This document shows positions 14,893-31,129 of a stretch of 64,000 nucleotides of DNA, piece by piece. The notes below the pieces were generated by a model. That model saw only the letters and a list, made by a program, of their open reading frames with translations. It had not been told where the DNA came from and searched no databases. Source of the stretch: Candidatus Pacearchaeota archaeon. Its GTDB lineage: Archaea > Nanobdellota > Nanobdellia > Pacearchaeales > GW2011-AR1. The stretch is from NCBI GenBank assembly GCA_041659945.1, contig JBAZXH010000001.1, positions 262,742 to 326,741 of the forward strand. The letters run 5' to 3'. Position 1 is the stretch's first letter, and the number at the start of each line of letters is the position of its first letter. The position numbers and the translations under genes were made by a program.

Positions 14893-16743
14893 ATGGTGAA
14901 AAATGTGAATAATTTTCGCGGAAAACAGTTAGCTATTCTTATTGGCGTTGTGGTTGTTGTTGGTCTTATTGCTGGATTTATCGGAAGTGGAGTAGGAAAT
15001 TTGACAGCAAATGTAATAAAAGATTCTCAAGCTGGCGCTGGTAAAGCAAATGCTGGTGCAGTATTATTAGAAGATACTTCAACAAAGACTGCTTGGCAAA
15101 TAACACATAGAGGAAGTGCTGCTGGAAATGAAGCTGGAGATTTGGCCGTGTATTATAAAGATGCTCAGGGGAATTGGTCTAATAAAATGACTCTTGATAA
15201 AAATGGAGAAATGACTGTTAATGGAGGGATAGTAGCTACTTATCATAGAGGAGCTAAATTAATCTTACAAGATGGAAGTTATGTAGTAAAAGATTCATCA
15301 AATGTTTATGGAGCTGTTACATCAATAACTTCGTTTGGAGGGAAAGTTTCTAAGTTTACAATTAATGTGACTCCTTATGCAATGGATAACCGAGTACCAT
15401 ATGTAAAACTTGGAAGTTCATTGATAGATCCAGTTTTTGAAAGCTTTAATTGGAATTTTATATCAGTAAATCCTGATCTTTTAGATAGCTCAAGAGAGTT
15501 GATTGAGATAAAATCTTCTGGAGAACAAAGAGGTCATTTGAAGTTTACTAATAGAGTTGGAAGTGTATATGACCTAGATTTGTTTAAACCAAGTAGCATT
15601 GTTGTAGGTAGTGGTTTAAATTCTACAATGCTTGGATTTGATACATACAGAGTAGTTTCCAATGCTTCAGGGATAACAAGAGAAAGAGATTTAGTTATAA
15701 CACGAAGTGGACAATATTCTCAAATTTGGGAAGTTGTTAGAATTGATGTAACTAATCGTCGTGTAACTCTTAAAGATAAGGGAACTAATGGTATGGAGGC
15801 AGCAGTAACTTTAAGTGGAAGTAATATTGGAGCTATTGGAGATTTAGTACTTTCAGATGGGAGTAGTGCAATAATTACATTAGCTAATAATGTGTCAATT
15901 GCAAATGTTGCACCGAATATAGTTGTTAGTAAAGCTGATTCAGTAATATACACTTATAATGGAGCAAAAATAGACTTAACTTATCTATCTGACCCAGTTA
16001 GGTATCAAAGAATTGGACCAGGAATTATACAAATAACTGAAGAAACCCCATATAACTTGGGTGATTATAGGAATAATGCTGGAAAGATTTTGGGAACTGC
16101 AGCTATTAATGTCACAATGAGATATAACAGTGCAACAAGATCAGGAAATGATCTTGAAATCAGTTCTGTATCTGTGCCTGGTGCAAGTGCAATAAGAGTT
16201 GGTGACTATGATGACTATTATCTAGATGCTTATGGTAGCTACATAAAGAACATTGGTAACTATGATAAGGTGTTTGATATGCTTTACTCTGGAAGTGCTA
16301 CTAACTATGGATTTTATCTAAACTCTTTAGTTGGTGGAGATTCAAAAGCGGTTGAAACCTCGGGCCAAAAATTATACCTTGGTGATTATATGAGTACAAC
16401 TAAGGAAGCTATGACGAAGTCTGACATGCCCACGCTTTTAGCTGATGGTAAGATTGTTGGAAATGATGGAGTAAGATATGATTACAATCAAGTAATTAAA
16501 GTTCCAAATTCCTACATTACATACAGTAAGACAATGGACAATCTTGTAACTCCTGTGTTAAATGCGTATTTTGAAACGACAGGTAAAGGTTATAGTATGT
16601 CAATTGTTTTTCCTACAGCCGTTGATCCTAAAAAGTTGGTAAATCAAGAGATTACTTTATTTGGAAAGAAGTATAGATTCTCTGCAAATGCCGATGATTT
16701 GAGTACTAATAAGTTAGTCTTATATGAGTATCAACTAAAATAA
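14893..16743 (+). CDS. Large surface protein with an N-terminal basic/hydrophobic anchor or class-III-like signal (candidate S-layer or pilus-associated protein)
   Basis: N-terminus MVKNVNNFRGKQLAILIGVVVVVGLIAGF. The remainder is beta-rich and T/S/N/G-rich with many NxS/T sequons. It has its own promoter, SD and a strong terminator hairpin. Confidence 0.75.
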   Translation: MVKNVNNFRGKQLAILIGVVVVVGLIAGFIGSGVGNLTANVIKDSQAGAGKANAGAVLLEDTSTKTAWQITHRGSAAGNEAGDLAVYYKDAQGNWSNKMTLDKNGEMTVNGGIVATYHRGAKLILQDGSYVVKDSSNVYGAVTSITSFGGKVSKFTINVTPYAMDNRVPYVKLGSSLIDPVFESFNWNFISVNPDLLDSSRELIEIKSSGEQRGHLKFTNRVGSVYDLDLFKPSSIVVGSGLNSTMLGFDTYRVVSNASGITRERDLVITRSGQYSQIWEVVRIDVTNRRVTLKDKGTNGMEAAVTLSGSNIGAIGDLVLSDGSSAIITLANNVSIANVAPNIVVSKADSVIYTYNGAKIDLTYLSDPVRYQRIGPGIIQITEETPYNLGDYRNNAGKILGTAAINVTMRYNSATRSGNDLEISSVSVPGASAIRVGDYDDYYLDAYGSYIKNIGNYDKVFDMLYSGSATNYGFYLNSLVGGDSKAVETSGQKLYLGDYMSTTKEAMTKSDMPTLLADGKIVGNDGVRYDYNQVIKVPNSYITYSKTMDNLVTPVLNAYFETTGKGYSMSIVFPTAVDPKKLVNQEITLFGKKYRFSANADDLSTNKLVLYEYQLK

Positions 16744-16754
16744 ATTTTTTAAAG

Positions 16755-16796
16755 ATGCCCAAGGACTTTTGTTCTTGGCATTTCTTTCTTTTTTTA
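16755..16796 (+). terminator. Hairpin plus T-tract terminator after the surface-protein gene
   Basis: atgcccaaggac-tttt-gttcttggcat forms an ~11-bp stem with one bulged C, followed directly by tttctttcttttttt. Confidence 0.5.
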
Positions 16797-16901
16797 TTAA
16801 TACTTAACTAAATCCTAATAGTTTTCTACCATAATTTTAACCATAGAAAACTATTTTAATCGATTTTAGATTCTTTATTTGTTATAAAGAGGAAAAAAGA
16901 G

Positions 16902-19175
16902 ATGTTATTTGATAAGACAACAAAATTATATGCATATGAGATAAGAAATGAATCGGGCCAAAATGTGGCCTATGTAAACTACTTGGGAGCACCCTACATA
17001 CCCTCAATAGCGGCTATTCCTGAAGTTATGGTTCGTACGGTAGATTTACTTATTGAATCTCAGAATATAACTAGGATTGTTTTTGTACAACAAAGAAATT
17101 ATAATTATGATTCTGATAAAGTTAATTTGCTTGCTGAAATAGCTTATCTTTATAACTTTTTAGTTAAACAGGAAAGGGTTTTATCCCCTGAAAAATTAGG
17201 AATGGCAAGCCAGGTAGTTATTTCTCAAAGATATGAACTAATTAATTATTTTTTGCAGTTGATGAAGCAGGACCCGGTTGCAGCATATCAACTAATTAAA
17301 AATGCATTGATAGAAGAGAAAGCCGCAGCAAGTGTTCCGGGAGCAATTAAAGAACTAGCTTATCTTATGCTGTTGGAAAAAGTTGTTTCTTTATTTGAAG
17401 ATACTGCTTTGATAAAAAAAGTTCTTGGAGATTATCAAGCAGGCCTTCCAAAAGATCGTAGTGTTTATAATCAGATATTTTTGGCAGATATAATACCAAA
17501 TTTTGCATTTGCAAGACTTGTTTCTTCACTTCCAGAAGACTCTAAAATTATTTCACAATATGAGATTGGTAGTGGTTCTGATAAGAGTACTGTTACAATA
17601 TTGAAAAAACCAAATGAGCTAAAATACTTTTATCATTTGATGCCCCCAGAATATTCTCTTAATGAAGAATTTCAAATGCTTTTGAACTTAGCAAGAAACG
17701 TTTTAATTGAGCATCAACCAAAGGCTGAAGAATTTATTGATCCGGCTAGGACAAGGCAGGTCTTTTTTAATGTTGCAAGAGACTTATTAAGAGAGCTTTC
17801 AGAAAATAAAAAGATATTTGTTTCGTATTCGGATTTGAACAAATTAGCAATGATTTTGGTTAGACATACAATTGGGTTTGGTTTATTGGAGGTGTTGTTG
17901 CAGGATAGACAACTGCAGGATATTGTTTTAAATGCTCCAATTAGTTTAACTCCGATTTATTTGAGACATGAAAAATATGATGAGTGTGTTACAAATATTA
18001 TGCTTAGTCAGGATGATGCTGATTCTTGGGCAGCTAAATTTAGAATGAGTTCGGGTAGACCTTTGGATGAGGCTAATCCCATATTGGATACTGATTTAGC
18101 TTTGGAAAAGATTAGAGCAAGAATTGCCATTGTTCAAAGACCGTTATCTTCTCAGGGATTGTCCTATGCTGTTAGAAGACATAGAGACTATCCGTGGACT
18201 TTGCCTTTGTTTATTAAAAATAAAATGATTAATTCTTTTGGTGCAGGTTTAATGAGTTTTTTAATTGATGGTGCTAGAACTTTATTGATTGCAGGAACAA
18301 GAAGCTCAGGAAAAACATCTCTTTTGGGAAGTTTAATGTTGGAAATAAAACCAAAGTATAGAATGATACTTATTGAAGATACTCCAGAATTGCCTGCAGA
18401 TTATATGAGGGAATTGGGTTATGATTTATTGAGTATGAAAGTTAGATCTTCCATGACTGAGACTTCCAACGAACTTGCTGCTGAAGAAGGAATAAGAACT
18501 AGTCTGAGACTTGGAGATTCATCTTTAATTGTTGGTGAAATAAGAAGTAATGAAGCTAAAGCTCTTTATGAAGCAATGAGAATTGGAGCTTTAGCAAATG
18601 TTGTTGCAGGTACAATTCATGGTTCGTCTCCCTATTCGGTTTTTGATAGAGTTGTTAATGATTTGAATGTTCCGGTAACTAGCTTTAAAGCAACAGATTT
18701 AATTTTGGTTGCAAATCCGGTTAGAACTCCGGATGGATTGCACTCCATGAAAAGAGTTATACAACTGACAGAGGTTAGAAAGCATTGGACTAAAGATCCG
18801 CTGGAAGAGGGAGGTTTTATTGATTTACTTAATTATAATGTTGAAAAAGATGATCTGGAACCAAGCCAGGAATTGATGAATGGTGATTCTGAAATTATTA
18901 AAACAATTGCTGCATCGGTTAAGGGATGGGTTGGTGATTGGGATGCGGTTTATGATAATATTTTGCTGAGAGGAAAGATAAAACAAGAACTAGTTAATAT
19001 TTCTGATAAACTGAAAAAACCAGAATTACTGGAAGCTAAATTTTCTTTTATTGCAAATAATATTTTTCATGAAGTTTGTGATGAAGTAACAAAAGAAATA
19101 GGAATTCCTAAATCTGAAAGAGTTTTTCCTGTTTGGGTTAAGAGACTGGATGAAGAAATACGGAAGTTCAGTTAA
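16902..19175 (+). CDS. Type IV pilus/secretion ATPase of the GspE/VirB11/FlaI-PilB family
   Basis: Walker A GTRSSGKTSLLGS (nt ~18291-18332), Asp box MILIEDTPEL, Walker B LIVGEIRSNEA and His box AGTIHGSSP, in the canonical order. The N-terminal region is unusually long (~450 aa). Confidence 0.85.
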   Translation: MLFDKTTKLYAYEIRNESGQNVAYVNYLGAPYIPSIAAIPEVMVRTVDLLIESQNITRIVFVQQRNYNYDSDKVNLLAEIAYLYNFLVKQERVLSPEKLGMASQVVISQRYELINYFLQLMKQDPVAAYQLIKNALIEEKAAASVPGAIKELAYLMLLEKVVSLFEDTALIKKVLGDYQAGLPKDRSVYNQIFLADIIPNFAFARLVSSLPEDSKIISQYEIGSGSDKSTVTILKKPNELKYFYHLMPPEYSLNEEFQMLLNLARNVLIEHQPKAEEFIDPARTRQVFFNVARDLLRELSENKKIFVSYSDLNKLAMILVRHTIGFGLLEVLLQDRQLQDIVLNAPISLTPIYLRHEKYDECVTNIMLSQDDADSWAAKFRMSSGRPLDEANPILDTDLALEKIRARIAIVQRPLSSQGLSYAVRRHRDYPWTLPLFIKNKMINSFGAGLMSFLIDGARTLLIAGTRSSGKTSLLGSLMLEIKPKYRMILIEDTPELPADYMRELGYDLLSMKVRSSMTETSNELAAEEGIRTSLRLGDSSLIVGEIRSNEAKALYEAMRIGALANVVAGTIHGSSPYSVFDRVVNDLNVPVTSFKATDLILVANPVRTPDGLHSMKRVIQLTEVRKHWTKDPLEEGGFIDLLNYNVEKDDLEPSQELMNGDSEIIKTIAASVKGWVGDWDAVYDNILLRGKIKQELVNISDKLKKPELLEAKFSFIANNIFHEVCDEVTKEIGIPKSERVFPVWVKRLDEEIRKFS

Positions 19176-19222
19176 GTAATTTTTTTCATTAGATTTATTA
19201 ATCTAAAATAATACTGCTATTT

Positions 19223-19813
19223 ATGTTAGAACTTGAGATTGTCAGAGCAATTAGTAATCTTGGAAGTGGAACTTTTTTAGATAAGATAAGCTGGTTTATT
19301 AGTTTGTATTCTTTTTTTGTTGTTCTTGGAGTTGTTTTGATGGTTTTGGTTTGGATTTATGATAGAAAGAATTTTAAAAAAGTACTTTTTGCAGTTATAA
19401 TTGCTCTTGCTTTGCATTTTGTGATAACTGAAGGAGTTTTTAAGGTTGTTATACCTCAGTTTACTGGAATTGGAATTCGTGAAAGGCCGTATATCTCTGA
19501 TAATAACCTAGTACCAATTGGCAAAATAGTTGTTGATTCATCTTTTCCCTCAGGACATGTATCTACGATTTTTGCCGTTGGAAGTGTATTTATGTTTTTT
19601 TATAGAAAGAAATGGTTTTTTGTTTTGGGAATAGGATTTGGAATTTTGGTAGCTCTTTCAAGAATACATAATGGGATGCATTATCCGAGCGATGTTATTG
19701 TTGGAGCAGGATTGGGGATTTTGTATGGATTAGTTGGTTTGTATTTTGCTAATCAGTTATATAAAATGAAAAGAATGAATGTTTTGAAAAGTAATAAGAA
19801 AATAAAATCTTGA
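19223..19813 (+). CDS. PAP2-family (type 2 phosphatidic acid / polyprenyl-diphosphate) phosphatase, copy 1
   Basis: All three PAP2 motifs are present: GIRERPY, FPSGHVS and SRIHNGMHYPSDV. The protein has six TM-like segments. Confidence 0.85.
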   Translation: MLELEIVRAISNLGSGTFLDKISWFISLYSFFVVLGVVLMVLVWIYDRKNFKKVLFAVIIALALHFVITEGVFKVVIPQFTGIGIRERPYISDNNLVPIGKIVVDSSFPSGHVSTIFAVGSVFMFFYRKKWFFVLGIGFGILVALSRIHNGMHYPSDVIVGAGLGILYGLVGLYFANQLYKMKRMNVLKSNKKIKS

Positions 19814-19854
19814 ATTTACTCAAAGTTTATTAATCACTATTTGTTTTATTTTTA

Positions 19855-20394
19855 ATGAAAATTGAGGCGAGGATAGTTCATTTTTTTAATAGAATTGGGA
19901 AAAATACTGTTTTGAACAAGATAACTTTGATTTTAAATTATATACCTTTCTTAGTAGCTCTTGTATTTATTATTATTATTTTTGTTTATTCTTATGACCC
20001 TGCAAATTTGAAAGTATTTTTAGCATCATTAATAATCGTGATTTGTTTTCACTTTTTAATAAGTGAACTTATTTTTAAGAAAGTAGTAGTTAGTTTTATT
20101 GGTATAAGAAAAAGACCCTATCTCTCTTATAGTTCTATTAAAGGAATTGGAAAGAAGTTTTCAGACAGTTCTTTTCCATCAAGTCATATGTCTGCAATTA
20201 CTGGTATCTTGTTTATTGTTAGTTACTTTTATCCATTAACAATTATCTTCTCAATTATCTTCCTTTTATTTATGGCTTTTTCAAGAATCCATAATGGAAT
20301 GCATTACCCTTCAGATGTTTTAGCAGGGTTTATTTTAGGATTATTTTATGGAGTTATGGGATTGAGTTTAGTTAATTTAATTTACGTTTTTTGA
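19855..20394 (+). CDS. PAP2-family phosphatase, copy 2 (tandem paralog)
   Basis: GIRKRPY, FPSSHMS and SRIHNGMHYPSDV, with the same architecture as copy 1. Confidence 0.85.
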   Translation: MKIEARIVHFFNRIGKNTVLNKITLILNYIPFLVALVFIIIIFVYSYDPANLKVFLASLIIVICFHFLISELIFKKVVVSFIGIRKRPYLSYSSIKGIGKKFSDSSFPSSHMSAITGILFIVSYFYPLTIIFSIIFLLFMAFSRIHNGMHYPSDVLAGFILGLFYGVMGLSLVNLIYVF

Positions 20395-20452: not shown

Positions 20453-22669
20453 ATGTCAGATGTAGATGAAATTATGAAGAAGTATGGGGCAAAGATTTCA
20501 AAACAAATAGACTTGAAAGATGAATACAAGGTCGGAGATTTGAGTAGAGAATATTTACAATTTAAAAAAGAATTAATGCCTGCTTTGTCAAGATATGAAT
20601 CTTGGGCAAAAACTTTTAATATAAAGGTAAAACCATCAACTAAAGATTTAGTAGGTATTCAAAGACAGTTGGATGTTGCTCATCTTGATCTATCTCCAGA
20701 AAATGTTTCGGGTTTTGCATTTTTTAGTGCTTTTTTGGTTTTTACTATTGGTTTGGTAATCTTTTCGGCATCATACTTTTCATTTGTTGGGTTGGAAGGA
20801 GATTTTCTTACCTATTTAATGGGACCTGCAGGTCTTTTTTTGGTTTTATCTTTGTTTGCTGCAATGTTTGTTTTTTATTATCTTTATTCTATGCCAAGTA
20901 GGCTTGCTAATTCCTGGAGATTAAAGGCAAGTGCACAAATGGTTCCGTGTATTTTGTATATTGTTGTTTACATGAAACATACTTCAAATCTTGAAAGAGC
21001 TGTTGCATTTGCATCTAAACACTTGAATTATCCTTTGGGGTTGGATCTAAAAAAAATATTTTGGGATGTTGAAACTGGGAAGTATAGTACTATTAAAGAA
21101 AGTTTAGATAAATATTTGGAAACCTGGGAAAAAGATAGTTTAGAATTTGTAGAAGCTTTTCATTTGATAGAATCTAGTCTTTATGAGCCATCTGATGGTA
21201 GAAGAATAATGATCCTTGAAAAGGGGCTGCAAACAATTTTGGATGGTGTTTACGAGAAGATGCTTGCATTCTCAAGAGAGGTTAGAAGTCCTTTAACTAA
21301 TTTGTATATGTTGGGAGTTGTTTTACCTACCTTGGGATTGGCACTTTTGCCTCTTGCCTCTGCTTTTTTGGGAGACATATTAAAAGTTTATCATGTCTTT
21401 ATATTTTTTAATTTAATTGTTCCATTTTTTGTTTTTTACTTAACCTCTCAAATAATGCTTAAACGACCGGGAGGTTATGGGGAAACTGATTTTCTTGAGT
21501 TGAATCCGGATTATGAGAAATACAAGAGTAAAAAGCATTATGTTACTGCTGCTTTGATTGCTATTCCTTTAATTTTAATTGCTCTTACTCCTTTTTTGTT
21601 ACAGTGGGACGAGTTAAGAAATACTATTGGATTGCAATGTCAGTATTATATAACTGGGACGAGTGGTTGTGATTTTGATTTTAATTATTTTGGTTTGAGC
21701 ATATTGGGAGAGACACGTGTTTTTGGTTTTAGATATGTGGAGGGAGCGGGAATTGTGGGGCCCTTTGGAATTTTGGCCATAGTTCTAAGTTTATTTATTC
21801 CCCTTGCTATTGGTTTGTTTTTTTACCTGTCCTATAATTCTAAAACAAAAGACTTAATTAAATCAAGAGATTTTTCTAAGCAACTTGAAAAAGAGTTTAC
21901 AAATTCACTTTTTCAATTGGGTAATAGAATCGGAGATGGGATGCCTGCAGAGGTGGCATTTGGTAGAGTTGCAGAATCAACTCGCGGACAGAAAACTGAA
22001 AATTTCTTTAGAAGAATTAATTTGAATTTGCAGCAGGGAGGAATGTCTTTGGAAAAAGCTATTTTTGATGAAAGAAGAGGAGCTATAATTTATTATCCTT
22101 CAGCTTTAATTGCAACAAGCATGAGAATCTTATTAGAGTCTGTTAAAAAAGGATTGAATATTGCAGCACAGAGTTTAATGAGTATTTCGGAGTATATTAA
22201 GAATATTCAGAAAGTAACCCAGAGACTTAATGATTTATTGGCAGAGGTTGTTTCTGATATGAAAAGTAATATGGTATTTTTAGCTCCGTTATTATCTGGA
22301 ATTGTTGTGGGATTATCTTCAATGATTGCTTTTCTTTTGGTAAGGCTAAGTGGAATATTTACTCAAATTGGAGGTAGTACTGAGCTGGGAGGTTTTAATA
22401 TTGGAGATTTTTTAAGAATTTTTGAAGTAGACAAAATGATTTCTCCTTACTTTTTACAAATTTCAGTTGGGCTTTATATTATAGAAATTATATTTATTTT
22501 AACAAATGTTCTTGTGGTGATTGATGCAGGAGAAGATAGGCTTAAGAGAACAAAAGAAACGGGAAATAATCTTGGTAGGGGAGTTGCAATTTATTTTGTT
22601 ATTACTTTGATTGCAATTGTTCTTCTTTCATCAATTGCAGCCATAGCTTTGGGAAGTTTGCAAACTTGA
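20453..22669 (+). CDS. Polytopic platform protein of a type IV pilus system (TadC/FlaJ/PilC-like, two T2SSF-like cytoplasmic repeats)
   Basis: 738 aa with alternating TM bundles and two helical cytoplasmic domains. It sits downstream of the secretion ATPase. A strong SD (gaggtgat) lies 5 nt before the ATG. Confidence 0.7.
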   Translation: MSDVDEIMKKYGAKISKQIDLKDEYKVGDLSREYLQFKKELMPALSRYESWAKTFNIKVKPSTKDLVGIQRQLDVAHLDLSPENVSGFAFFSAFLVFTIGLVIFSASYFSFVGLEGDFLTYLMGPAGLFLVLSLFAAMFVFYYLYSMPSRLANSWRLKASAQMVPCILYIVVYMKHTSNLERAVAFASKHLNYPLGLDLKKIFWDVETGKYSTIKESLDKYLETWEKDSLEFVEAFHLIESSLYEPSDGRRIMILEKGLQTILDGVYEKMLAFSREVRSPLTNLYMLGVVLPTLGLALLPLASAFLGDILKVYHVFIFFNLIVPFFVFYLTSQIMLKRPGGYGETDFLELNPDYEKYKSKKHYVTAALIAIPLILIALTPFLLQWDELRNTIGLQCQYYITGTSGCDFDFNYFGLSILGETRVFGFRYVEGAGIVGPFGILAIVLSLFIPLAIGLFFYLSYNSKTKDLIKSRDFSKQLEKEFTNSLFQLGNRIGDGMPAEVAFGRVAESTRGQKTENFFRRINLNLQQGGMSLEKAIFDERRGAIIYYPSALIATSMRILLESVKKGLNIAAQSLMSISEYIKNIQKVTQRLNDLLAEVVSDMKSNMVFLAPLLSGIVVGLSSMIAFLLVRLSGIFTQIGGSTELGGFNIGDFLRIFEVDKMISPYFLQISVGLYIIEIIFILTNVLVVIDAGEDRLKRTKETGNNLGRGVAIYFVITLIAIVLLSSIAAIALGSLQT

Positions 22670-23536: not shown

Positions 23537-25192
23537 ATGAGAAGGATAAAAAATAAAAAGGCGGAGGGAGATACTAATTGGAGCATGATTGCAGGTTTTA
23601 TTCTTTTAGTTTTGGCAATCTTTTTTGCTATTACTTTTATTTTTAAGATACCCTTGGTAAGCTGGTTTGAAAATTTAATTCCAGGTTTTGACTTACCTGG
23701 AGATAATGTTCTTAATCTTGGGGACCCAAGAAACCCAGATACCTTAGTTCCAGAAGGGTGTGATCGGATTGCAGTTTTAGTAAATGAGGGAAATGGAATT
23801 ATTAATACTATTAAACGTCAAACATCTGGAGAGTATGTTTATTTTATAAATTCTGGAACCCTTGAGAGTTCATATTTTTATTTTGATGGCAACTTAGAAT
23901 CTGGGAAAATAATTGTTAAGGACTTTTTTACTAGTGATGTTGAAGTTGGCACAGTTATTGCATCAAAAATATTTATAATTCCAGATTTTTTTGATGCTTC
24001 TTCAAAAGAATATCAGAACCTGAGGGTGAATTTGCTTCATGCAGGTTATGGAAAAGATGTTTTCATAGAAAAACTTAAAATTTTGAATAATGCTAAAATT
24101 TATTCTAAAATTCAAAAATCAGTTTGTCGTGGTGATGAGCAAACACAAATTGTTAATCAGTGGCCTGAAGATTTGGGAGTTTATAATGCAGACACAAGTA
24201 GCATATTAAAGAACACACAAAAGATCATTTTTGAATTTAGAGATGGAACCTATAAGAGTAATTTATTTTATAGGTATTTTATAAAAGATAATCTGGGTTA
24301 TTGGCAATGGTCTCTTGATATTAATGAATGGTTTTATTGCAAAGATAAAATTATTAAAAATGTAGGGGATAAAAATAAAGAGTTTATTATGAGTTTGGTA
24401 GGTAAAAATTATCAAGAGGGCATTGGTCTTTTAATTTCAAGAACATTCACTAATGATGAAGGGGCTTTATTTGGGAACTCTCAATTGTATATTTCTAAAG
24501 GAATTGTTATTTTAAATAATAAAGGCCTTTTTGAATTGGATAGAGCCTTTTTTGGAAAAGCAATTTATTTTTTCTTTGATGAGAACAACTATTGGAGATG
24601 GTCTTCTGATGGTAAAACTTGGGCATATACTTCAGTAGATGTTGACTTGAATAATTTTGCATTGTCTAAAGAAAATATTGCTATCATAGAAAATATTAAG
24701 AAAATAAACTCTCCGCCAAAATCAGAAGACTTCTTTGCTGGCGCTGAAGCAATTTTTGATAGCAGTATTGAAAAAGAAATAAGTTCTGTTGATTTAAAAT
24801 TAGTTGGAATTGATAATTCTAATGATTTTGGTAAGCTACAAATGTTTTCTTCAAATAACAAAAACTTTATTTTAATCGAATCTCAAGAAAATGGTAAGAC
24901 TATTGGGGTTATTTATGGTGATGGTTCTATTTGGTTTGATATGAGATTTTTGTTTCAAAATGATGGAAAATTGATTTTAGAAAGTGGCAAAATTAAACTT
25001 AGAGAAATTAATGGATATTCTTTGTTTTATCCTAATTCATTTAAGAATTCCCCCGAGTTAAAGTTTGATTTACCATGTAATGAAGAATCATTCAAAGTTA
25101 TCCCTAATTTTGGAAATTATTTTTGTGAAACTAATTTAAGGCTCGAGAAGGATAAGTTTGATTATATTAAACAGTTTATTAAAGAGGTTTAA
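23537..25192 (+). CDS. Large pilin-like protein P1 (551 aa) with class-III-like signal
   Basis: MRRIKNKKAEGDTNWSMIAGFILLVLAIFF. The N-terminal motif GDTNW(S/G)MIA is shared with P9. There is an internal duplicated YWxWSxD..W motif. Confidence 0.75.
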   Translation: MRRIKNKKAEGDTNWSMIAGFILLVLAIFFAITFIFKIPLVSWFENLIPGFDLPGDNVLNLGDPRNPDTLVPEGCDRIAVLVNEGNGIINTIKRQTSGEYVYFINSGTLESSYFYFDGNLESGKIIVKDFFTSDVEVGTVIASKIFIIPDFFDASSKEYQNLRVNLLHAGYGKDVFIEKLKILNNAKIYSKIQKSVCRGDEQTQIVNQWPEDLGVYNADTSSILKNTQKIIFEFRDGTYKSNLFYRYFIKDNLGYWQWSLDINEWFYCKDKIIKNVGDKNKEFIMSLVGKNYQEGIGLLISRTFTNDEGALFGNSQLYISKGIVILNNKGLFELDRAFFGKAIYFFFDENNYWRWSSDGKTWAYTSVDVDLNNFALSKENIAIIENIKKINSPPKSEDFFAGAEAIFDSSIEKEISSVDLKLVGIDNSNDFGKLQMFSSNNKNFILIESQENGKTIGVIYGDGSIWFDMRFLFQNDGKLILESGKIKLREINGYSLFYPNSFKNSPELKFDLPCNEESFKVIPNFGNYFCETNLRLEKDKFDYIKQFIKEV

Positions 25193-25762
25193 ATGAAAAA
25201 CAAAAAGGCAATTCTTATTCCTGAGATTTTGAAACTTGTAATTGGTGCATTAATTATTGTTTTTTTATTTGTGGCTGCAATAAAGATTTATGGAATTGTT
25301 CAGTCTAATTCTGATAGAACTCAAGCGGCTTCTGAAATAGAAGTGATTGCTAGAACTATAAATGGCCTCGGTGAGGGAGATGTGGGTAAGTACGATCTGC
25401 TTTCCCCAAGTGGTTGGGCTTTGTATGGTTTTCCCTATGGAAATGTTAAAACAATAAGGTGTGAAATCTCGGAGTTTTGTGTTTGTTTATGTCCAAAAGC
25501 AAGTGTCTCTATGGGATCAACAGTCAATCCTCGTTTAATTTCCGAGGAAGAGTATTTTAAAAGTTATCGTGATTCTTGTGATAGTCAAGGCGTTTGTTCC
25601 AAAGTTGAGAAAGAGGTTTTTGTGAATAATATTAATTTAGAATTTAAGGAGATTAAAACATTTATTTTAGTTGATGATTTAGTTGAAGCTAAAAAATCCA
25701 TCGCAATGACAATCAAAAATGACAAAGCATTTGTTAATTTCAATGATCAAAATGAAATCTAA
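25193..25762 (+). CDS. Pilin-like protein P2 (189 aa), Cys-rich ectodomain
   Basis: MKNKKAILIPEILKLVIGALIIVFLF has KKA followed by Glu at +5. Cys-rich stretch CEISEFCVCLCPK...CDSQGVC. The start abuts the P1 stop (taaatg). Confidence 0.75.
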   Translation: MKNKKAILIPEILKLVIGALIIVFLFVAAIKIYGIVQSNSDRTQAASEIEVIARTINGLGEGDVGKYDLLSPSGWALYGFPYGNVKTIRCEISEFCVCLCPKASVSMGSTVNPRLISEEEYFKSYRDSCDSQGVCSKVEKEVFVNNINLEFKEIKTFILVDDLVEAKKSIAMTIKNDKAFVNFNDQNEI

Positions 25763-25886
25763 TTCACTAAAAAAAGCGCAGTTATTACCAGAACAAGTAA
25801 TTCAAGCTCTCTTTTGGGTTGTTCTAGCTGTAGCTTTATTTACTGCGGCTTACTTTATTTTTAAATCAATTACCTCTATGGCTTAA
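25752..25886 (+). CDS. Mini pilin-like protein P3 (44 aa; not in the ORF track)
   Basis: MKSNSLKKAQLLPEQVIQALFWVVLAVALFTAAYFIF has KKA followed by Glu at +5. It overlaps the P2 3' end by 11 nt. Confidence 0.5.
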   Translation: MKSNSLKKAQLLPEQVIQALFWVVLAVALFTAAYFIFKSITSMA

Positions 25887-25926
25887 AAAGTATAAACTAT
25901 AAAAACCCTTGAGTTTTATTATTATT

Positions 25927-27048
25927 ATGATCTCTCATTTAAAAAAAGGTGAATTGCCAGTTAGCTGGACAGTTACAATAATTCTTTTGCTTATTGGTTT
26001 TGTTATTCTTTTGGTTATTTATTTTGAATTTTTTAATTTTGATATGATTGATAGGCAAGCCTGTCATAAATCTGTTCTTTTAAGAGGTTCTCTACCTTAT
26101 CAATCAGTTTCTCAAGGTTATGTTCCTTTACAATGTAAAACTCAAAAAATTTGTATAACTGGAGATTCTGGCGGAAAGTGTACTGAATTTAAAAATGAAG
26201 AAAAAGTTAGAAGAGTGAAAGTTCTTAATAATGAAAGAGGGTTGGATGAAATACAAAAGCTTTATGCTCAAGAAATCTTGGATTGTTGGTCTATGATGGG
26301 CGAGGGAAAATTAAGTATATTTTCCCCAAGTCTTTCACAAAGTTTTCAAATCGGTTCTCTTTATCCTAATTGTGTAATTTGTTCTAGAATTGCTATTGAC
26401 GAAAAAACCCTTGATAAAGTTGGGTTGAATAAGTTAAATATTTTTGAATACATGAATACTCATTTGGTCCCAAGTACTAATCAAACCTATTTGCAGTATA
26501 TTACTGGTGAAGATTTTGCAGGAATTGCTGTTGATGATCAAGCTTTTAATGAATTTGTAAAACAACAGGTTTCTAGTTCGGGAACTGGAGGAGTTGAAGG
26601 AGAATTAAATGGTGGAGGATTGGAAGGAGAGACAGACTATGTTGATGATGAAGTAGCTGTTTTGTTTATGCAAGTTAGTAGAGTTCCAAGTGCGTTAGAT
26701 GTTGCAAAAAAAGATATTTTGGTTGCATTGGGAATGGGTGCCGGCGCAACAGCTACTTATATTTCTGTTGGAGGTGCAACATTTGGTTGGTCTACTAAAT
26801 TGATTGGGTGGGTTAGTTCTGTTCCGGTTATTAGAGCAGGTGTAGCTGTCATTGCTCTAGTTGCAGGTACCACAACTCTTAGTACTCAAGCAATTAATCT
26901 GTACAAAAGCAAAAGTGTGGTTGCTGCTTCTTGTAGTGATGTTGAAGTAGGTAATGGGGTTTATAGTGGTTGTTCAGTAGTTAGAACAGTTAAATATGAT
27001 TCTCAAGAAATATTAAAAAATTGTAAAAAAATACAAAGTATCCCTTAG
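25927..27048 (+). CDS. Pilin-like protein P4 (373 aa from the ATG at 25927), Cys-rich with a hydrophobic G/A-rich C-terminal region
   Basis: MISHLKKGELPVSWTVTIILLLIGFVILL. The track start at 25909 is a TTG; the first ATG is at 25927. Many Cys residues are present. Confidence 0.7.
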   Translation: MISHLKKGELPVSWTVTIILLLIGFVILLVIYFEFFNFDMIDRQACHKSVLLRGSLPYQSVSQGYVPLQCKTQKICITGDSGGKCTEFKNEEKVRRVKVLNNERGLDEIQKLYAQEILDCWSMMGEGKLSIFSPSLSQSFQIGSLYPNCVICSRIAIDEKTLDKVGLNKLNIFEYMNTHLVPSTNQTYLQYITGEDFAGIAVDDQAFNEFVKQQVSSSGTGGVEGELNGGGLEGETDYVDDEVAVLFMQVSRVPSALDVAKKDILVALGMGAGATATYISVGGATFGWSTKLIGWVSSVPVIRAGVAVIALVAGTTTLSTQAINLYKSKSVVAASCSDVEVGNGVYSGCSVVRTVKYDSQEILKNCKKIQSIP

Positions 27049-27049
27049 A

Positions 27050-27466
27050 ATGAATAAACGTGGAGATGATTTATTAATTGAAAATTTAGTTGTTGTAGTT
27101 GTTGTTATTGTTTTTTTTGGTATGCTTTTGTTTTTTGTCGCTAGATCTAGTTCGGGTGGCGCTTTTTTGGGACAGTATTATTCTAAACAAGTAGGAGTTT
27201 TAATTGATGGTGGGAAACCAGGGACTCAGATAACTTTAGATGTAAGTGATGCTTATAAAGTTACAAGGAAAAATAATTTTGACTATCAAAAGATGGTTAA
27301 ATTTGAAGATAATAATGTTCTTTTTATGTTTGGTGATGGTAAGGAGTATAAGTTCCATTATTTTAGTGATGTTGAAGTTGAGGGACCAGTTTATTCTATT
27401 CTTGGAGAGACAAAAAACCCCCAAGTTCTTTTGAACTTTAAATTAAATTCTAAGAAAAATGTATAA
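27050..27466 (+). CDS. Pilin-like protein P5 (138 aa)
   Basis: MNKRGDDLLIENLVVVVVVIVFFGMLLFF. The start lies 1 nt after the P4 stop. Confidence 0.7.
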   Translation: MNKRGDDLLIENLVVVVVVIVFFGMLLFFVARSSSGGAFLGQYYSKQVGVLIDGGKPGTQITLDVSDAYKVTRKNNFDYQKMVKFEDNNVLFMFGDGKEYKFHYFSDVEVEGPVYSILGETKNPQVLLNFKLNSKKNV

Positions 27467-27965
27467 AATATCTAATAAAAGAGCTAATGTATTCTCTATT
27501 TGGTTACTTGTCATGTTTGTGTTAGTGGGAGGAGGTATAGCTATTAGTGTTATGTTCTTTTATTCTTATTCTTTAGATGTAAGAATTTACGAGGCAAAAG
27601 CCCTTTCGGAAAAAATAGTTGATTGTTTAGTTGTTAATGGATATATTAATGGAGAATTTGTTAAGAAAAATTCTATGGAATTTGATGTTTTAAGTTACTG
27701 TGGTTTGGACAAAAAATCTTTTAGTGAAGGATCTCCGTATTTTTTAAGATTAAAGTTAACTAGGGATTCGGAGGAGGTAAGGTACATTAAATTTGGTAAT
27801 TTTGCTATGGAAAAAGACTGTGAGATAAAACAAGGGCTTGTGGAATCAGATAAATTTCCAGATTGTATTAAAAAGTCTGTAATTGTTACGGACAGATCAA
27901 GAAATGAGTTTGTTTTAGAAGTTCTTTCAGGATCAAATAATCAGGGAGAGATAAGTCAAAAATGA
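27459..27965 (+). CDS. Pilin-like protein P6 (168 aa)
   Basis: MYKISNKRANVFSIWLLVMFVLVGGG. It overlaps P5 by 8 nt. Confidence 0.7.
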   Translation: MYKISNKRANVFSIWLLVMFVLVGGGIAISVMFFYSYSLDVRIYEAKALSEKIVDCLVVNGYINGEFVKKNSMEFDVLSYCGLDKKSFSEGSPYFLRLKLTRDSEEVRYIKFGNFAMEKDCEIKQGLVESDKFPDCIKKSVIVTDRSRNEFVLEVLSGSNNQGEISQK

Positions 27966-28516
27966 ATTTTAGACTAATGTTATCTAAAGGTAAGAAAGCA
28001 CAAATTTCAGAGGGCATGACCTGGCTAGCTGCGACATTTTTTGTTCTCTTAGCAATGGTTTTTTTTACGCTTTTAGTTGTTATGATTTTTTCACAAACCG
28101 ACAAAAAAATAGTTGATACAAGTCTTAAACCCTCTATTTCTAGTTTTTTTGTTCAAAATAGAGCAGTTATTTCTTTATGGTCTGATGATGAGTGTATCTG
28201 GACTGGAACTTATTTTGAGGAAACTGAGAAATGTAAACAGATAGATGTTCAAAAGAAATATGAAGATCTCTGTAATGTTCTTATGAATTATTTTAACAAC
28301 CCAGAGGTTTATTATAAGCATTTTTGTATTGAAACAAGAACTGACGATAAAAATGAAGTTATATCTATTATGATTGGTGACAAAACATGTGGGCTCAAGC
28401 CAAATGGTGAAACATGTATCTCTTCTGATATGCTTAATGTTTATGACTCAAATTATTTTATTTCAAAAGGAGGAAAACCAATAATAACTTTTTTTTATGA
28501 TGGAAAAACTAAATAA
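27962..28516 (+). CDS. Pilin-like protein P7 (184 aa)
   Basis: LSKGKKAQISEGMTWLAATFFVLLAMVFF. ATGA start/stop overlap with P6. Confidence 0.7.
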   Translation: MNFRLMLSKGKKAQISEGMTWLAATFFVLLAMVFFTLLVVMIFSQTDKKIVDTSLKPSISSFFVQNRAVISLWSDDECIWTGTYFEETEKCKQIDVQKKYEDLCNVLMNYFNNPEVYYKHFCIETRTDDKNEVISIMIGDKTCGLKPNGETCISSDMLNVYDSNYFISKGGKPIITFFYDGKTK

Positions 28517-29015
28517 GCGAGGTATGGTTTTAGCAATCGGTGTTTTTGTCCTAATGACCATGATTTTAATTGGAGCTGCACTTTTTTATTTTATTACTGA
28601 AAAGAGTAAAATTGACAAGCGGTTTGAGGGTTCTAGTGTTTTGGAGGAGGTTTACGCTAAGGAGAATCTGATTAATTTTTATGTTCAAGACATATTGGAT
28701 AAGGCTGTTCAGTCTAAGCCGAAAACTAGTCAAGAGTTGATTATTGCGTTAAAAAGTTCGATTGGTAGTTATAATATAAATAATCCTAATCCTCTAACTA
28801 TTGAAGAATCGCAGAATCCGTCAAAATACTTTTTTATGCCAGAACTTTTGCAGGTTGAGAATCAAATTGATTTTCCTGATAGGGTTAAAATTCAAAATAA
28901 CAAAGCTTTTTTTACAGTTGATATTTCACTGAAAAAGGAGATTTTTTATAAGGGTAAGAAAAATTTTGATGTTACCTATGTTTACACCAAAACTTTTGAA
29001 TCAGAGATTTCTTAA
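28497..29015 (+). CDS. Pilin-like protein P8 (172 aa)
   Basis: MMEKLNKRGMVLAIGVFVLMTMILIGAALF. It overlaps the P7 3' end. Confidence 0.7.
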   Translation: MMEKLNKRGMVLAIGVFVLMTMILIGAALFYFITEKSKIDKRFEGSSVLEEVYAKENLINFYVQDILDKAVQSKPKTSQELIIALKSSIGSYNINNPNPLTIEESQNPSKYFFMPELLQVENQIDFPDRVKIQNNKAFFTVDISLKKEIFYKGKKNFDVTYVYTKTFESEIS

Positions 29016-29028
29016 TAAAAGAATAATT

Positions 29029-29045
29029 TACGAAATATTTATAAA
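29029..29045 (+). promoter_or_regulatory. BRE/TATA promoter upstream of P9; 17-mer identical to the promoter at 34602
   Basis: tacgaaatatttataaa occurs identically at 29029-29045 and 34602-34618. Confidence 0.45.
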
Positions 29046-29082
29046 GGAGCTTTAGTTTGTTTTGTTATAAAAAGAGTTTAAG

Positions 29083-29781
29083 ATGAGATCAATAGTTAAT
29101 AAAAGGGGAGATACAAATTGGGGTATGATTGCTAGCGGATTGCTAGTTGCTCTTGCAGTAATTTTCGCATTCTTATTTTTTAGTGGCGCCTGGGGTAAAA
29201 TTTTGAATTGGTTAGGTGCTGTTCCAGGAGATACTTTACAAACAACTTTAGAAGGATGTAAAATTCGTTCAATGCCTTCATATACTTTACCAATTGAGTT
29301 TTGTAAGTTCAGATTAGTTAAGTTAGATGATCCTATTAGTAAGTCTGTTTATTTGACGTGCGAATATCCTCCGATTTATAGCCAACTTCCTGTTGAAAAC
29401 AGAGAGGCTGTTAATTGTAATAATCCAAAAGATCTTAATGAAAGAGTAAAAGATCTTTGCGATAGTCAAAAGACCAAGTTTACAGATGCAGCAGGCAAGA
29501 TAGAGGTAGCAAAATTACAAAAGGTTTTTGTTGCTAAGGCTGATGGAACTGTAGTTAATTGTGATGCCTTTTTAGCAGGAGTTGGTGGAACTCCTGATGC
29601 AACTACTAACAAAAAGAATTGTGTTGGTGCTGATGGTTGGAATGGAAACTGGTACGCTCTTAGTTGTCCTAGTCCTGCAACTGCTGGAAGTTCGGGTACT
29701 TGGGTTCAAATTGAACCTTCTAAAATAACTGATGCAGATCTTAATGCTAATGCAGGAAAGGTTTGTTGTAAAGCTGCTTAA
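29083..29781 (+). CDS. Pilin-like protein P9 (232 aa), Cys-rich ectodomain ending in CCKAA
   Basis: MRSIVNKRGDTNWGMIASGLLVALAVIFAF has an N-terminus paralogous to P1. There are at least 12 Cys residues in the ectodomain. Confidence 0.75.
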   Translation: MRSIVNKRGDTNWGMIASGLLVALAVIFAFLFFSGAWGKILNWLGAVPGDTLQTTLEGCKIRSMPSYTLPIEFCKFRLVKLDDPISKSVYLTCEYPPIYSQLPVENREAVNCNNPKDLNERVKDLCDSQKTKFTDAAGKIEVAKLQKVFVAKADGTVVNCDAFLAGVGGTPDATTNKKNCVGADGWNGNWYALSCPSPATAGSSGTWVQIEPSKITDADLNANAGKVCCKAA

Positions 29782-29923
29782 TCCTTTCTAAAAACATTTA
29801 AATATCTTGGATAATTTTTATTAATATGGGAGATGAACCCATAAAGTTCAAAAGAACTTTAGGCCCCAAAATCCAAAAGGATTTTTAGGGTTTTTAAAAG
29901 GTTCCCAAACCTAGAAAGAAAAA

Positions 29924-30049
29924 ATGACAAGTGATTATGGTTTTGCTGGCAAGAGAACAACAAAGAAAGATCTAAGAACTAAAAGCAAGAATAGAGTTTA
30001 TAAGCGTGGTGGAAAGAATAGAACTAAGTGCTTAGACGGCTGTTGTTAA
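29924..30049 (+). CDS. Possible very basic mini-protein (41 aa) ending in CLDGCC (not in the ORF track)
   Basis: MTSDYGFAGKRTTKKDLRTKSKNRVYKRGGKNRTKCLDGCC. gtttttaaaagg lies ~27 nt upstream of the ATG and a T-tract follows the stop. No homology recognised. Confidence 0.3.
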   Translation: MTSDYGFAGKRTTKKDLRTKSKNRVYKRGGKNRTKCLDGCC

Positions 30050-30073
30050 TGCTTTCTTTTTGAAGAGAGGTTT

Positions 30074-30197
30074 TGAAAATATAAAGACAATTGTTCACAT
30101 CCGTTCACATTACTTCTGTAAGTTTTAGTTAATTTAACAGTTGACTTTTATTGTACTGATTAATTATTAAATCTTTTAACCTTAAACTTTAAATTTT
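30074..30197. repeat. Conserved intergenic element, copy 2
   Basis: See copy 1 at 13072-13172. It shares the TATA-like head, the identical 19-mer (30112-30130) and the 3' aaactttaaatttt followed by a T5 run. Confidence 0.45.
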
Positions 30198-30271
30198 TAT
30201 CTTATTAAAAATTTGTTAAGGTGATATTTTCAGAGAATGTTACTTTTTCAAAATATTATCTTTTTAAATAA

Positions 30272-31129
30272 TCAATACATTAATCCTAAGATTTTGTAAA
30301 TACCTACATAGTTAACAATTATAAGTACAATAAATGCAAATAGGAACGAAGGGCTAAAGGGTATACCATATTTTACTAGAACTTTATTTTTGTAGTTTTT
30401 TTGTAGAAACTCTAGGTCACTTTCACTAATTCCTTCCCAATTTGAGGCGATTTTTCTATCTTTGACTTCTAAATCTTTAACTAACCAATCACCTATTGTA
30501 ATTTTATCAACTGATACCCATTTTACCATGCAGCACTGTTCAATGGCTTTTGTGTAGATGTAAAGCAGGGGCATTAGTAGGATCAGAAAGGAAAATACTA
30601 AGAATAATAACGAATTTCCTCTTGCAAGTAAAATAATAAAAAAAGCAAGGATAAAAGCAATGCCTAGACCAATGAATAATAGGCCTTTATTTTTATTAAA
30701 TTGTTTTTCTAGTTCAATCTTAAAACTCTTTTTATTTTTCAATGCTAGAACACCACTGTAAACTAAACTGTAAATTCCTCCTAAAAAGAGTAGAGCCATG
30801 ATAAAGATCATTGCATAGACTATATTTTCTAGCCAGCTAAGAGAGAGTGGAACTATAACTCCAAATGCTATAAATAACTTAGCATCTCCTCCTGCAAATA
30901 ACCTAGCATGGTAAAATAAATGTCCTAGTAGGAAGAATATTCCTAGGCCAATAAGTCCAAAAAGAAACCACCAGTAGTTATTTGAAAATAAACTGTAGAA
31001 TAATCTGATTACTAAAACAAAAATTATTAAACTAAAACTTATCCAATTTGCAATTTCTCTTGATTTTAAATCTTGGATATTTGCAAAAATAACCCAGATC
31101 AATACTAGTGCAATTAATAGTTCTATCAT
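30272..31129 (-). CDS. A24-family prepilin/preflagellin peptidase (PibD/FlaK/EppA-like) with an extra C-terminal soluble domain and terminal TM
   Basis: The first catalytic-Asp context is NIQDLKSREIAN and the second is FAGGDAKLFIAFG (GxGD-type). The core is polytopic. About 80 aa of extra sequence (ITIGDWLVKDLEVKD...) precede the last TM. Confidence 0.8.
   Translation of the reverse strand: MIELLIALVLIWVIFANIQDLKSREIANWISFSLIIFVLVIRLFYSLFSNNYWWFLFGLIGLGIFFLLGHLFYHARLFAGGDAKLFIAFGVIVPLSLSWLENIVYAMIFIMALLFLGGIYSLVYSGVLALKNKKSFKIELEKQFNKNKGLLFIGLGIAFILAFFIILLARGNSLLFLVFSFLILLMPLLYIYTKAIEQCCMVKWVSVDKITIGDWLVKDLEVKDRKIASNWEGISESDLEFLQKNYKNKVLVKYGIPFSPSFLFAFIVLIIVNYVGIYKILGLMY

Follow-up and report, generated by a model that had tools for sequence, protein, structure and literature searches.

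A conserved Pacearchaeota and Woesearchaeota locus that probably encodes a type IV filament

A gene block with the parts of a filament machine

We studied a stretch of 64,000 nucleotides from Candidatus Pacearchaeota archaeon (contig JBAZXH010000001.1 of assembly GCA_041659945.1, positions 262,742 to 326,741 of the forward strand), which we will call the window. All coordinates below are positions within it. Between 14893 and 31129 lies a block of genes for a secretion ATPase, a large and probable platform protein, ten pilin-like proteins (P1 to P10), and a prepilin peptidase, along with a few genes of other kinds. We think it very likely that this block encodes an archaeal-type type IV filament (TFF) assembly system. 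The block is one case of a locus that is very widespread and highly conserved in Pacearchaeota and Woesearchaeota.

The window is AT-rich (about 31% GC), and its archaeal signs include an intron-containing tRNA and an eIF2-alpha gene. A preliminary description, made from the letters of the DNA, had listed the open reading frames (ORFs) of the block; every one of them is present where that description placed it, and independent public gene calls on the 832,568-bp contig contain the same genes. Our family scans covered 57 proteins of the window, including the whole locus; about 10 smaller ORFs elsewhere in the window were outside the scan. Unless another number is given, orthologue frequencies are counted over 80 related loci (L001–L080).

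As the preliminary description claimed, the complete minimal machinery of an archaeal type IV filament is encoded here: an ATPase, a platform protein, a peptidase of family A24, and substrates with class-III-type signals. It had also noted that archaellin, FlaH, and FlaG are missing, and none of these, nor FlaF, FlaC/D/E, or FlaX, is found among the 57 proteins scanned.

The gene at 16902–19175 (+ strand) encodes a 757-amino-acid secretion ATPase of the GspE/FlaI/TadA superfamily. Its earlier placement in the GspE/FlaI family holds, with a match to Pfam's T2SSE (E = 1.5e-10) that is above the Pfam cut-off. The Walker A motif (GTRSSGKT) is at residue 465, and the boxes ILIEDTPE, GEIRS, and AGTIHG, which include Walker B and the His box, are kept across 60 orthologues. 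The ATPase has more than 5000 homologues, and the best 120 listed are 65–80% identical to it and nearly all full-length. When we compared it by sequence to the proteins in the PDB, the best match was afGspE from Archaeoglobus fulgidus (PDB 2OAP; 4.6e-27), followed by CpaF/TadA (1e-19) and FlaI (2.6e-16). An AlphaFold2 model (pLDDT 78) also matched afGspE best in Foldseek (1.5e-27, target TM-score 0.63–0.70), ahead of FlaI (4e-25) and CpaF (1.7e-20). However, afGspE is just 20% identical to the ATPase, which has about 186 extra residues at its N terminus and about 40 at its C terminus. The ATPase also falls below the cut-off of every NCBIfam equivalog: it scores 132.5 bits against 550 for FlaI (its best NCBIfam match, at 2e-38), 117.8 against 373 for TadA, 62 against 1000 for BasE, and 33 against 300 for ComGA. 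The last two scores are so far below their cut-offs that we rejected a Com system and a bindosome as assignments for the locus.

The ATPase was thought to carry an N-terminal extension of about 450 amino acids. There is an extra region, but it is shorter. Alignments begin at residue 214 of the ATPase for afGspE (its residue 28), at 292 for CpaF (114), and at 319 for FlaI (120), so the true size is about 180–200 amino acids. In the AlphaFold2 model, this region is predicted to be a folded domain with an alpha/beta part and a helical part. The least conserved part of the ATPase is residues 101–210. Subsystem-specific N-terminal domains are already known for archaeal TFF ATPases (preprint 10.64898/2026.04.22.720090). 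Some of the orthologous ATPases (P0038, P0044, P0048, and P0084) have about 1255–1275 amino acids and contain intein/homing-endonuclease domains (PF14528 and PF14890); the ATPase in the window has no intein.

The putative platform protein is encoded at 20453–22669 (+ strand) and is polytopic, with 738 amino acids. The preliminary description called it TadC/FlaJ-like. Structure supports this at the level of domains, with the fold of EpsF, OutF, and PilC, but by sequence the match to T2SSF is below threshold (E = 0.028). Similarly, Pfam found T2SSF in two of 25 platform homologues, below the cut-off, and a profile of those 25 homologues had no match in the PDB. The AlphaFold2 model (pLDDT 78.3, pTM 0.75) is all-helical, and it has two six-helix bundles (at about 147–245 and 480–570) that are predicted to be cytoplasmic and to lie between long transmembrane helices. 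Foldseek gave a probability of about 1.0 only for the cytoplasmic domains of EpsF, OutF, and PilC (target TM-score 0.65–0.71, root-mean-square deviation about 3 Å); the next match was a PilC model, with a probability of 0.51. On the basis of the predicted fold and the gene context, we accept this protein as the probable platform. A comparison of its N-terminal and C-terminal halves with hhalign found no internal repeat, with an alignment so shallow (an effective number of sequences, Neff, of 1.6) that the result is uninformative. There are over 4300 homologues. The best 120 are 56–68% identical; nearly all of those with names are "hypothetical," and no precomputed Pfam domain is recorded for them. 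The platform is encoded by a single gene (for 738 amino acids in the window) and is not split in two, and this also holds for the related loci.

At the other end of the block, the gene at 30272–31129 (− strand) encodes an A24 prepilin (class III signal) peptidase of 285 amino acids. This assignment stands on a clear match to Peptidase_A24 (3.3e-11; 44 bits against a cut-off of 26.5). The catalytic residues D20 and GGD82 are kept in at least 90% of 51 orthologues. There are weaker matches to Arc_PepC_II, in the C-terminal domain, and to FlaK. The C-terminal domain was described as extra. It is present, but it is normal for this group of orthologues, which have about 270–295 amino acids and a conserved GDW (residues 213–215). 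The peptidase gene adjoins the array of pilin-like genes in 50 of the 80 loci and is mostly co-oriented with it; in the window, the two are convergent.

Between the platform and the peptidase are the genes for P1 to P10. According to the preliminary description, these ten back-to-back genes encode proteins that begin with a short basic segment and a hydrophobic helix, and we confirmed this for all ten: each has the motif [KR][KR][GA] and one N-terminal hydrophobic helix. We ran a simple FlaFind-like scan for class III signals (this motif plus a single transmembrane helix) on all 145 ORFs in the window. The only other matches were a 616-amino-acid protein at the start of the block and two spurious antisense ORFs, so the motif is clustered in the ten P genes far more strongly than chance would produce. 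The genes are separated by −20 to +67 bp, with several stop/start overlaps, which is an operon-like packing.

The motif is also conserved. We tabulated nine families, and each keeps the signature K-[K/R]-[G/A] across dozens of species. (P2 has too few orthologues and was not included.) Lysine is at −3 in 66–90% of the sequences for eight of the nine families, and this was not imposed by the search pattern; in the P4 set, which has five sequences, it is 40%. Lysine or arginine is at −2 in about 95% of sequences from the P families. Glycine or alanine at −1 was required by the search pattern. Glutamine is often found at +1 in P8 and P10.

The ten proteins range from 44 to 551 amino acids, as originally described. 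The first, P1 (23361–23528, + strand, as are all ten; 55 amino acids), has the motif KKG|VISEYLPW, an E-Y pair early in the helix, and a conserved C-terminal KNLFRF. Orthologues are found in 33 of 80 loci. P1 and P4 (25752–25886; 44 amino acids; KKA|QLLPE and a helix) have the size and layout of the Flp/EpdE pilins, which lack a globular domain, although P1 has no match to Flp in Pfam. P4 is called in one public record and is absent from the other. P2 (23537–25192; 551 amino acids) has a class-III-type start (KKA|EGDTNW and a helix), and orthologues are recognisable by sequence in 2 of 80 loci. P3 (25193–25762; 189 amino acids; 56 of 80 loci) and its orthologues have the pattern K-K-G/A|(F/I)-L-L-x-E, with the glutamate at +5 present in 50%, as well as conserved cysteines.

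P5 (25927–27048; 373 amino acids) is found in 62 of 80 loci; it is the most conserved extracytoplasmic component of the system and represents its signature family. At 50% identity (E ≤ 1e-3), the family falls into 1335 clusters, and among the best 150 listed, most match over the full length. P5 has 12 invariant or near-invariant cysteines and the motifs CHxSVxxR and DCWxMxGEGK. A profile built from 45 representatives had no match in the PDB, and Pfam scans of 45 members gave only scattered chance matches, including one to PilJ_Pilin at 0.0076.

P6 (27050–27466; 138 amino acids; 60 of 80 loci) has the pattern K-K-G|xILxEN. Its helix runs into a conserved EQxYAKxIALxID, and this is followed by a small beta-rich domain. 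As judged from the sequence, this is consistent with the usual lollipop-like layout of a pilin. A profile of 43 P6 orthologues had no match in the PDB, and a homologue search with P6 returned only the query itself. P7 (27459–27965; 168 amino acids; 55 of 80 loci) has four conserved cysteines. P8 (27962–28516; 184 amino acids) has the motif KKA|QISE..TW. P9 (28497–29015; 172 amino acids) and P10 (29083–29781; 232 amino acids, with ten cysteines and the motif KRG|DTNW) can be recognised by sequence in 22 and 8 of the 80 loci, respectively, and in both cases the slot in the gene order is kept.

The pilins and archaellins of well-studied archaea are N-glycosylated. The ectodomains of P2 to P10 (encoded at 23537–29781) contain one sequon (N-x-S/T), against 15 expected, and none of 2000 shuffles had a count this low. 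Across the 80 loci, sequons are depleted two- to threefold in the P orthologues and are not depleted in the ATPase, the platform, or the 616-amino-acid protein. Furthermore, 94–95% of P5 and P7 orthologues (95% for P7) have an even number of cysteines. Together, the depletion of sequons and the even cysteine counts suggest that the P proteins may be pilins that avoid glycosylation and are stabilised by disulfides in place of glycans.

Between the last pilin-like gene and the peptidase, we noticed a very basic mini-ORF of 41 amino acids (29924–30049, + strand; MTSDYGFAGKRTTKKDLRTKSKNRVYKRGGKNRTKCLDGCC). In about 20 of 43 loci, an orthologue with the pattern M(x)DYGF..KR..K.D.R.K..F..YKKGG..R is at the same position. 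The mini-ORF has no match in Pfam and is called in one public record only. By its sequence it is not a pilin, because it has no transmembrane helix.

Conservation of the locus and local insertions

The platform is encoded in at least 587 species-representative genomes, all of them labelled as Pacearchaeota, Woesearchaeota, or Nanoarchaeota. In the 80 loci, the usual order is up2 (−), up1 (−), ATPase, platform, [P1], P3, P5, P6, P7, [P9], peptidase, and a HIT gene, where up1 and up2 are two genes upstream of the ATPase and brackets mark genes that are not always recognised. The platform gene is inverted in a frequent variant. As a stricter count, we considered the 31 loci with complete 10-kb flanks and asked for the ATPase, the platform, at least three of P3, P5, P6, and P7, and the peptidase. 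In 26 of the 31, the ATPase, platform, pilin array, and peptidase are together and in a fixed positional order. Synteny across the 80 loci bears out the block as a unit in related genomes. The preliminary description had named outcomes that would contradict its reading, and given this conservation, none of them was found.

We also mapped the motif-bearing ORFs from the platform to the peptidase in 44 loci. The median number of class-III-like ORFs is eight. The slots outlast sequence similarity, and they come in this order: an ORF of about 50 amino acids, a large variable ORF, P3, a mini-ORF of about 40 amino acids, P5, P6, P7, an ORF of about 190 amino acids, P9, and a P10-like ORF. Most of these loci have a motif-bearing ORF of about 50 amino acids after the platform (the P1 slot). 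In many of them, a motif-bearing ORF of 160–600 amino acids is at the P2 slot despite its variable sequence, and one of about 37–48 amino acids is between P3 and P5 (the P4 slot). Most have one of about 80–230 amino acids at the P8 slot.

The preliminary description emphasised an atypical list of parts, including a pair of PAP2 phosphatases, the 616-amino-acid surface protein, and a protein with four transmembrane helices. These genes do exist. However, they are seen in just 1 (the PAP2 pair), 1 (the surface protein), and 2 (the four-helix protein) of the 80 loci, and they lie at junctions that are tight in many genomes. We conclude that they are lineage-specific local insertions and not parts of the machine, so we ruled them out as components, and the "atypical parts list" largely dissolves. 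In relatives, the gap between up1 and the ATPase is mostly 57–150 bp; in the window it is 2190 bp, because the gene for the 616-amino-acid protein is inserted there. Of the 65 loci with both an ATPase and a platform gene, about a third have less than 100 bp between the two, and the rest have unrelated genes inserted there; in the window, the distance is 1278 bp. In other lineages, these same two junctions hold unrelated insertions.

PAP2 phosphatases a (19223–19813, + strand; 196 amino acids; 3.2e-19) and b (19855–20394, + strand; 179 amino acids; 1.5e-14) are between the ATPase and the platform. They score 69.4 and 54.3 bits against a Pfam cut-off of 27.2. Motifs of the types RP, PSGH, and SRxxxxxHxxxD are visible in both copies: copy a has RERP, PSGH, and SRIHNGMHYPSD and is weakly similar to undecaprenyl-diphosphatases, and copy b has PSSH. 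PAP2 a is absent from 79 of the 80 loci, and PAP2 b is found only in L026. The four-helix protein (22756–23283, + strand; 175 amino acids), which follows the platform, matches DUF7144/DUF2127.

The 616-amino-acid protein (14893–16743, + strand) is a surface protein with one N-terminal transmembrane helix and no match in Pfam or the PDB. It has seven sequons, as chance predicts. Its sole orthologue is also in L026 and lacks the R-G motif, so it is not a convincing substrate. The gene was described as monocistronic. There is one hairpin followed by a run of T at 16759–16778 that would fit this, but such sites are no more common in this region than in shuffled sequence. More generally, the counts from promoter and terminator models were at or below the shuffled expectation; these models are bacterial, and the organism is archaeal, so the counts are uninformative.

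Upstream of the ATPase, and transcribed divergently from it across a short intergenic gap in most relatives, are up1 (14269–14712, − strand; 147 amino acids, with a coiled coil; 57 of 80 loci) and up2 (13229–14269, − strand; 346 amino acids; adjoins the ATPase module in 52 of 80 loci). up2 is predicted to be cytoplasmic and has no Pfam family. It has a small N-terminal domain, a low-complexity linker rich in Q, Y, and G, and a C-terminal coiled coil. up1 and up2 are not detectably paralogous to each other.

Beyond up2, there are three paralogous genes for small proteins with multiple transmembrane helices (11248–11784, 11924–12487, and 12508–13017, all + strand). They share the N-terminal pattern FLLxFxLIFAILQKxxILG, do not belong to any Pfam family, and are kept upstream of up2 in 36–45 of the 80 loci.

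Proposed function and alternatives

We propose that the ten P proteins would insert into the membrane via their N-terminal helices and that the A24 aspartyl peptidase, with D20 and D82 at its active site, would cut the basic leader after K-[K/R]-[G/A]. A hexamer of the ATPase would dock onto the cytoplasmic helical bundles of the 738-amino-acid platform, and ATP hydrolysis would drive the processed subunits out of the membrane and into a helical filament, which would be held together by their hydrophobic N-terminal helices. P1, at about 50 amino acids and without a globular domain (Flp/EpdE-sized), is the best candidate for the major subunit, although we hold this only tentatively. P3, P5, P6, and P7, with the proteins of the P8, P9, and P10 slots, are conserved, mid-sized, and disulfide-rich, and they may form a minor-pilin priming complex or a tip complex. 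The protein of the P2 slot is large and variable in sequence and is a candidate for an adhesin or a tip protein. The divergent coiled-coil proteins up1 and up2 are probably cytoplasmic partners of the machine. As for what the filament would do, the likeliest single role is adhesion of the episymbiont to other cells or to surfaces, although we put this at somewhat less than even odds; uptake of DNA or nutrients is the main alternative. Attachment to a host, which the preliminary description favoured, is plausible.

Several observations weigh against a filament assembly system. No P protein matches a pilin family or a solved pilin by sequence, either in Pfam and NCBIfam or when the P5 and P6 profiles are compared to the PDB. 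The platform has no significant sequence match to T2SSF, and Foldseek's E-values for the whole protein are poor (0.7–2), so that the assignment depends on the fold of its domains and on context. In two loci, L039 and L042, the ATPase, platform, and peptidase are kept, but no pilin array lies next to them. Synteny in such small genomes also reaches beyond the system itself, to a helicase, the three small membrane paralogues, and the HIT protein, so that up1 and up2 gain little support from adjacency alone. (L039 and L042 also keep up2, up1, and the HIT gene, and they have three large genes, for proteins of 928, 516, and 644 amino acids, between the ATPase and the platform.)

We also considered that the same TFF machine might build a short, Com-like pseudopilus for taking up DNA or nucleotides. 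The filament would capture DNA, either extracellular or from the host, and deliver it to the membrane of an auxotrophic cell with a small genome. The locus has a single ATPase, and its order, with an ATPase, a platform, a run of small pilin-like genes, and a dedicated peptidase, is one that we take to resemble the comG operon. DPANN pili have been proposed to import DNA (PMC7414124; PMC9563170). However, the ATPase scores just 33 bits for the ComGA equivalog, whose cut-off is 300, no gene similar to ComEC or ComEA is among the 57 proteins scanned, and the large variable protein of the P2 slot fits an adhesin better. Overall, uptake seems unlikely, but it deserves more weight than the explanations that follow.

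A less probable explanation, and one we doubt, is a device for surface display or secretion, similar to a bindosome or a type II secretion system, in which a short pseudopilus anchors or pushes out large proteins with class III signals. Such large class-III-type proteins do occur in the variable slots: P2 here, ORFs of 260–620 amino acids elsewhere, and, in L055, a motif-bearing ORF of 1584 amino acids between the ATPase and the platform. It has also been proposed that widespread binding proteins with class III signals functionalise archaeal TFF machines (preprint 10.64898/2026.04.22.720090), and the ATPase does match BasE. That match is weak (62 bits against a cut-off of 1000), though, and Pfam found no substrate-binding-protein domain in any P protein. 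The first position is held by a conserved subunit of Flp size, which points to a true filament instead.

The ten P proteins could also be ordinary proteins with N-terminal anchors, if the neighbourhood reflects general synteny rather than function. This would explain why they do not match pilin families by sequence and why the synteny includes unrelated neighbours. But nine families that are not homologous to one another all retain K-[KR]-[GA], in dozens of species, and among the single-helix proteins of the window, the motif is confined to the block. Furthermore, an A24 peptidase with an intact active site is adjacent in 50 of the 80 loci, and the genes overlap or lie close together in the manner of an operon. 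We consider this explanation very improbable.

Least credible of all is an archaellum, a motility organelle: FlaI is the best NCBIfam match of the ATPase (2e-38), and FlaI, FlaJ, and FlaK have been annotated in Woesearchaeota (PMC8407392), but the FlaI score of 132.5 bits is far from the equivalog cut-off of 550, the closest solved ATPase by both sequence and fold is afGspE and not FlaI, and we rejected this assignment because none of the genes specific to archaella (archaellin, FlaF/G, FlaH, FlaC/D/E) is among the 57 proteins scanned.

Related systems, the rest of the window, and implications

This is a known kind of machinery, and its general presence in Pacearchaeota and Woesearchaeota has already been published. 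Hamm et al. 2024 described two conserved type IV pilus-like loci, with CpaF, TadC, and pilins, across cluster-2 DPANN, and named Woesearchaeota and Pacearchaeota among the lineages; these loci adjoin coiled-coil, "nucleoporin-like" proteins (PMC11291902). The locus in the window is similar, with a CpaF-like ATPase and a TadC-like platform next to one or two proteins that contain coiled coils or low-complexity sequence. In 52–57 of the 80 loci, up1 and up2 adjoin the ATPase, and by their description they resemble the coiled-coil partner proteins (CCPs) of Hamm et al. From their sequences, up2 is probably a CCP of this system, and up1 and up2 are probably the counterparts of the published CCPs. 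However, Hamm et al. show loci for Nanohaloarchaeota only, and their account does not cover a ten-slot pilin array, a peptidase next to it, or what kind of protein the platform is.

Makarova, Wolf and Koonin 2019 described "dark matter" islands in DPANN genomes, in which unrecognisable signal-peptide proteins beside an ATPase and TadC were inferred to be pilins (PMC6393860). The locus in the window fits this description as well: it has an ATPase, a TadC-like protein, and runs of unannotated signal-peptide proteins that we read as divergent pilins. Their account is a general statement with an example in one figure, and it does not analyse conservation or positional order in Pacearchaeota and Woesearchaeota.

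In a 2026 survey with MacSyFinder, the systems of DPANN fall in System 1, Aap-like, or 4A (preprint 10.64898/2026.04.22.720090). The same preprint describes Epd, an 11-gene cluster with two platform genes, a peptidase of its own, and a pilin that lacks a globular domain, as well as System 2, which has a single platform, an extended ATPase, and adhesin-like proteins. The preliminary description considered the number and size range of the substrates to be unusual. This does not hold, since large and varied sets of pilin-like proteins, and Flp-sized pilins, are known in archaea, as in Epd (preprint 10.64898/2026.04.22.720090).

The locus in the window mixes features of Epd/System 1 and System 2. 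As in Epd/System 1 from Methanococcus maripaludis, and in its bacterial descendant Tad/Flp, there is a cluster of about 11 genes with many pilin-like proteins and a dedicated peptidase. In Epd/System 1, the main pilin lacks a globular domain, and P1 and P4 are of such a size. Structural comparison of the ATPase also places CpaF/TadA among its best matches. Unlike in System 1 and Tad, where the platform is split into two genes (TadB/TadC or EpdJ/K), there is one gene for a platform of 738 amino acids; the ATPase has about 190 extra N-terminal residues and scores just 117.8 bits for TadA, against a cut-off of 373; and P1 does not match Flp. As in System 2, which includes the PilB/PilC loci of Haloferax, there is only one platform gene, the ATPase is extended at both termini, and the locus contains several pilins, membrane proteins, and large adhesin-like proteins. 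Unlike in System 2, there is no match to the PilA-type pilin families, and the platform is not recognised by T2SSF.

The rest of the window contains several other features. A MinD/ParA-type P-loop ATPase is encoded at 47551–48318 (+ strand), some 16 kb away from the locus; for some archaeal TFF systems, a MinD-like ATPase has been suggested as a partner (preprint 10.64898/2026.04.22.720090). At 62–6031 (+ strand) is a gene for a giant surface protein of 1989 amino acids that has CARDB repeats as well as DUF4214, an I9 inhibitor domain, and a subtilase (S8) domain. The gene at 52820–53758 encodes another CARDB protein, in this case with a metalloprotease domain of matrixin-like type. A tRNA match at 52361–52483 (− strand), which ARAGORN does not call, has 123 nucleotides, as compared to 71 positions in the model, so this tRNA probably contains an intron. 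A tRNA-Asp (54527–54600) is followed directly by a gene of the phage integrase family (54686–55972) and then by a GC-poor stretch (0.25 at 56–58 kb); the region at 54527–58000 is probably an integrated mobile element.

It is possible, although we think it somewhat unlikely, that the Pacearchaeota/Woesearchaeota locus is a distinct, unclassified subtype of archaeal TFF that is largely missed by the models of arCOG, Pfam, and MacSyFinder. The subtype may be marked by a platform of about 730 amino acids without a detectable T2SSF signature and by an ATPase that carries an N-terminal domain of its own, about 190 amino acids long. Its other traits may be a fixed array of ten slots that opens with an Flp-sized subunit, the cysteine-rich signature family P5, minor pilins that are disulfide-rich and depleted in sequons, and a large hypervariable protein as the determinant of host specificity.

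In this locus, neither the platform nor any of the pilins is recognised by annotation pipelines. A study of groundwater took pili on ultra-small cells as a sign of bacteria from the candidate phyla radiation, on the premise that the components of type IV pili are "missing in DPANN genomes" (preprint 10.1101/2020.05.14.094862). Since the locus is found in at least 587 species, and its proteins are nearly all named "hypothetical," this premise is unsafe for these lineages. In groundwater and sediments, Pacearchaeota and Woesearchaeota rank with the most abundant of the archaea that have yet to be cultivated. The ten-slot array, the P5 family, and the variable P2 slot are specific targets for proteomics, cryo-electron tomography, and studies of host range. 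If the locus does represent a distinct subtype, then it would be a general host-contact organelle of such episymbionts.

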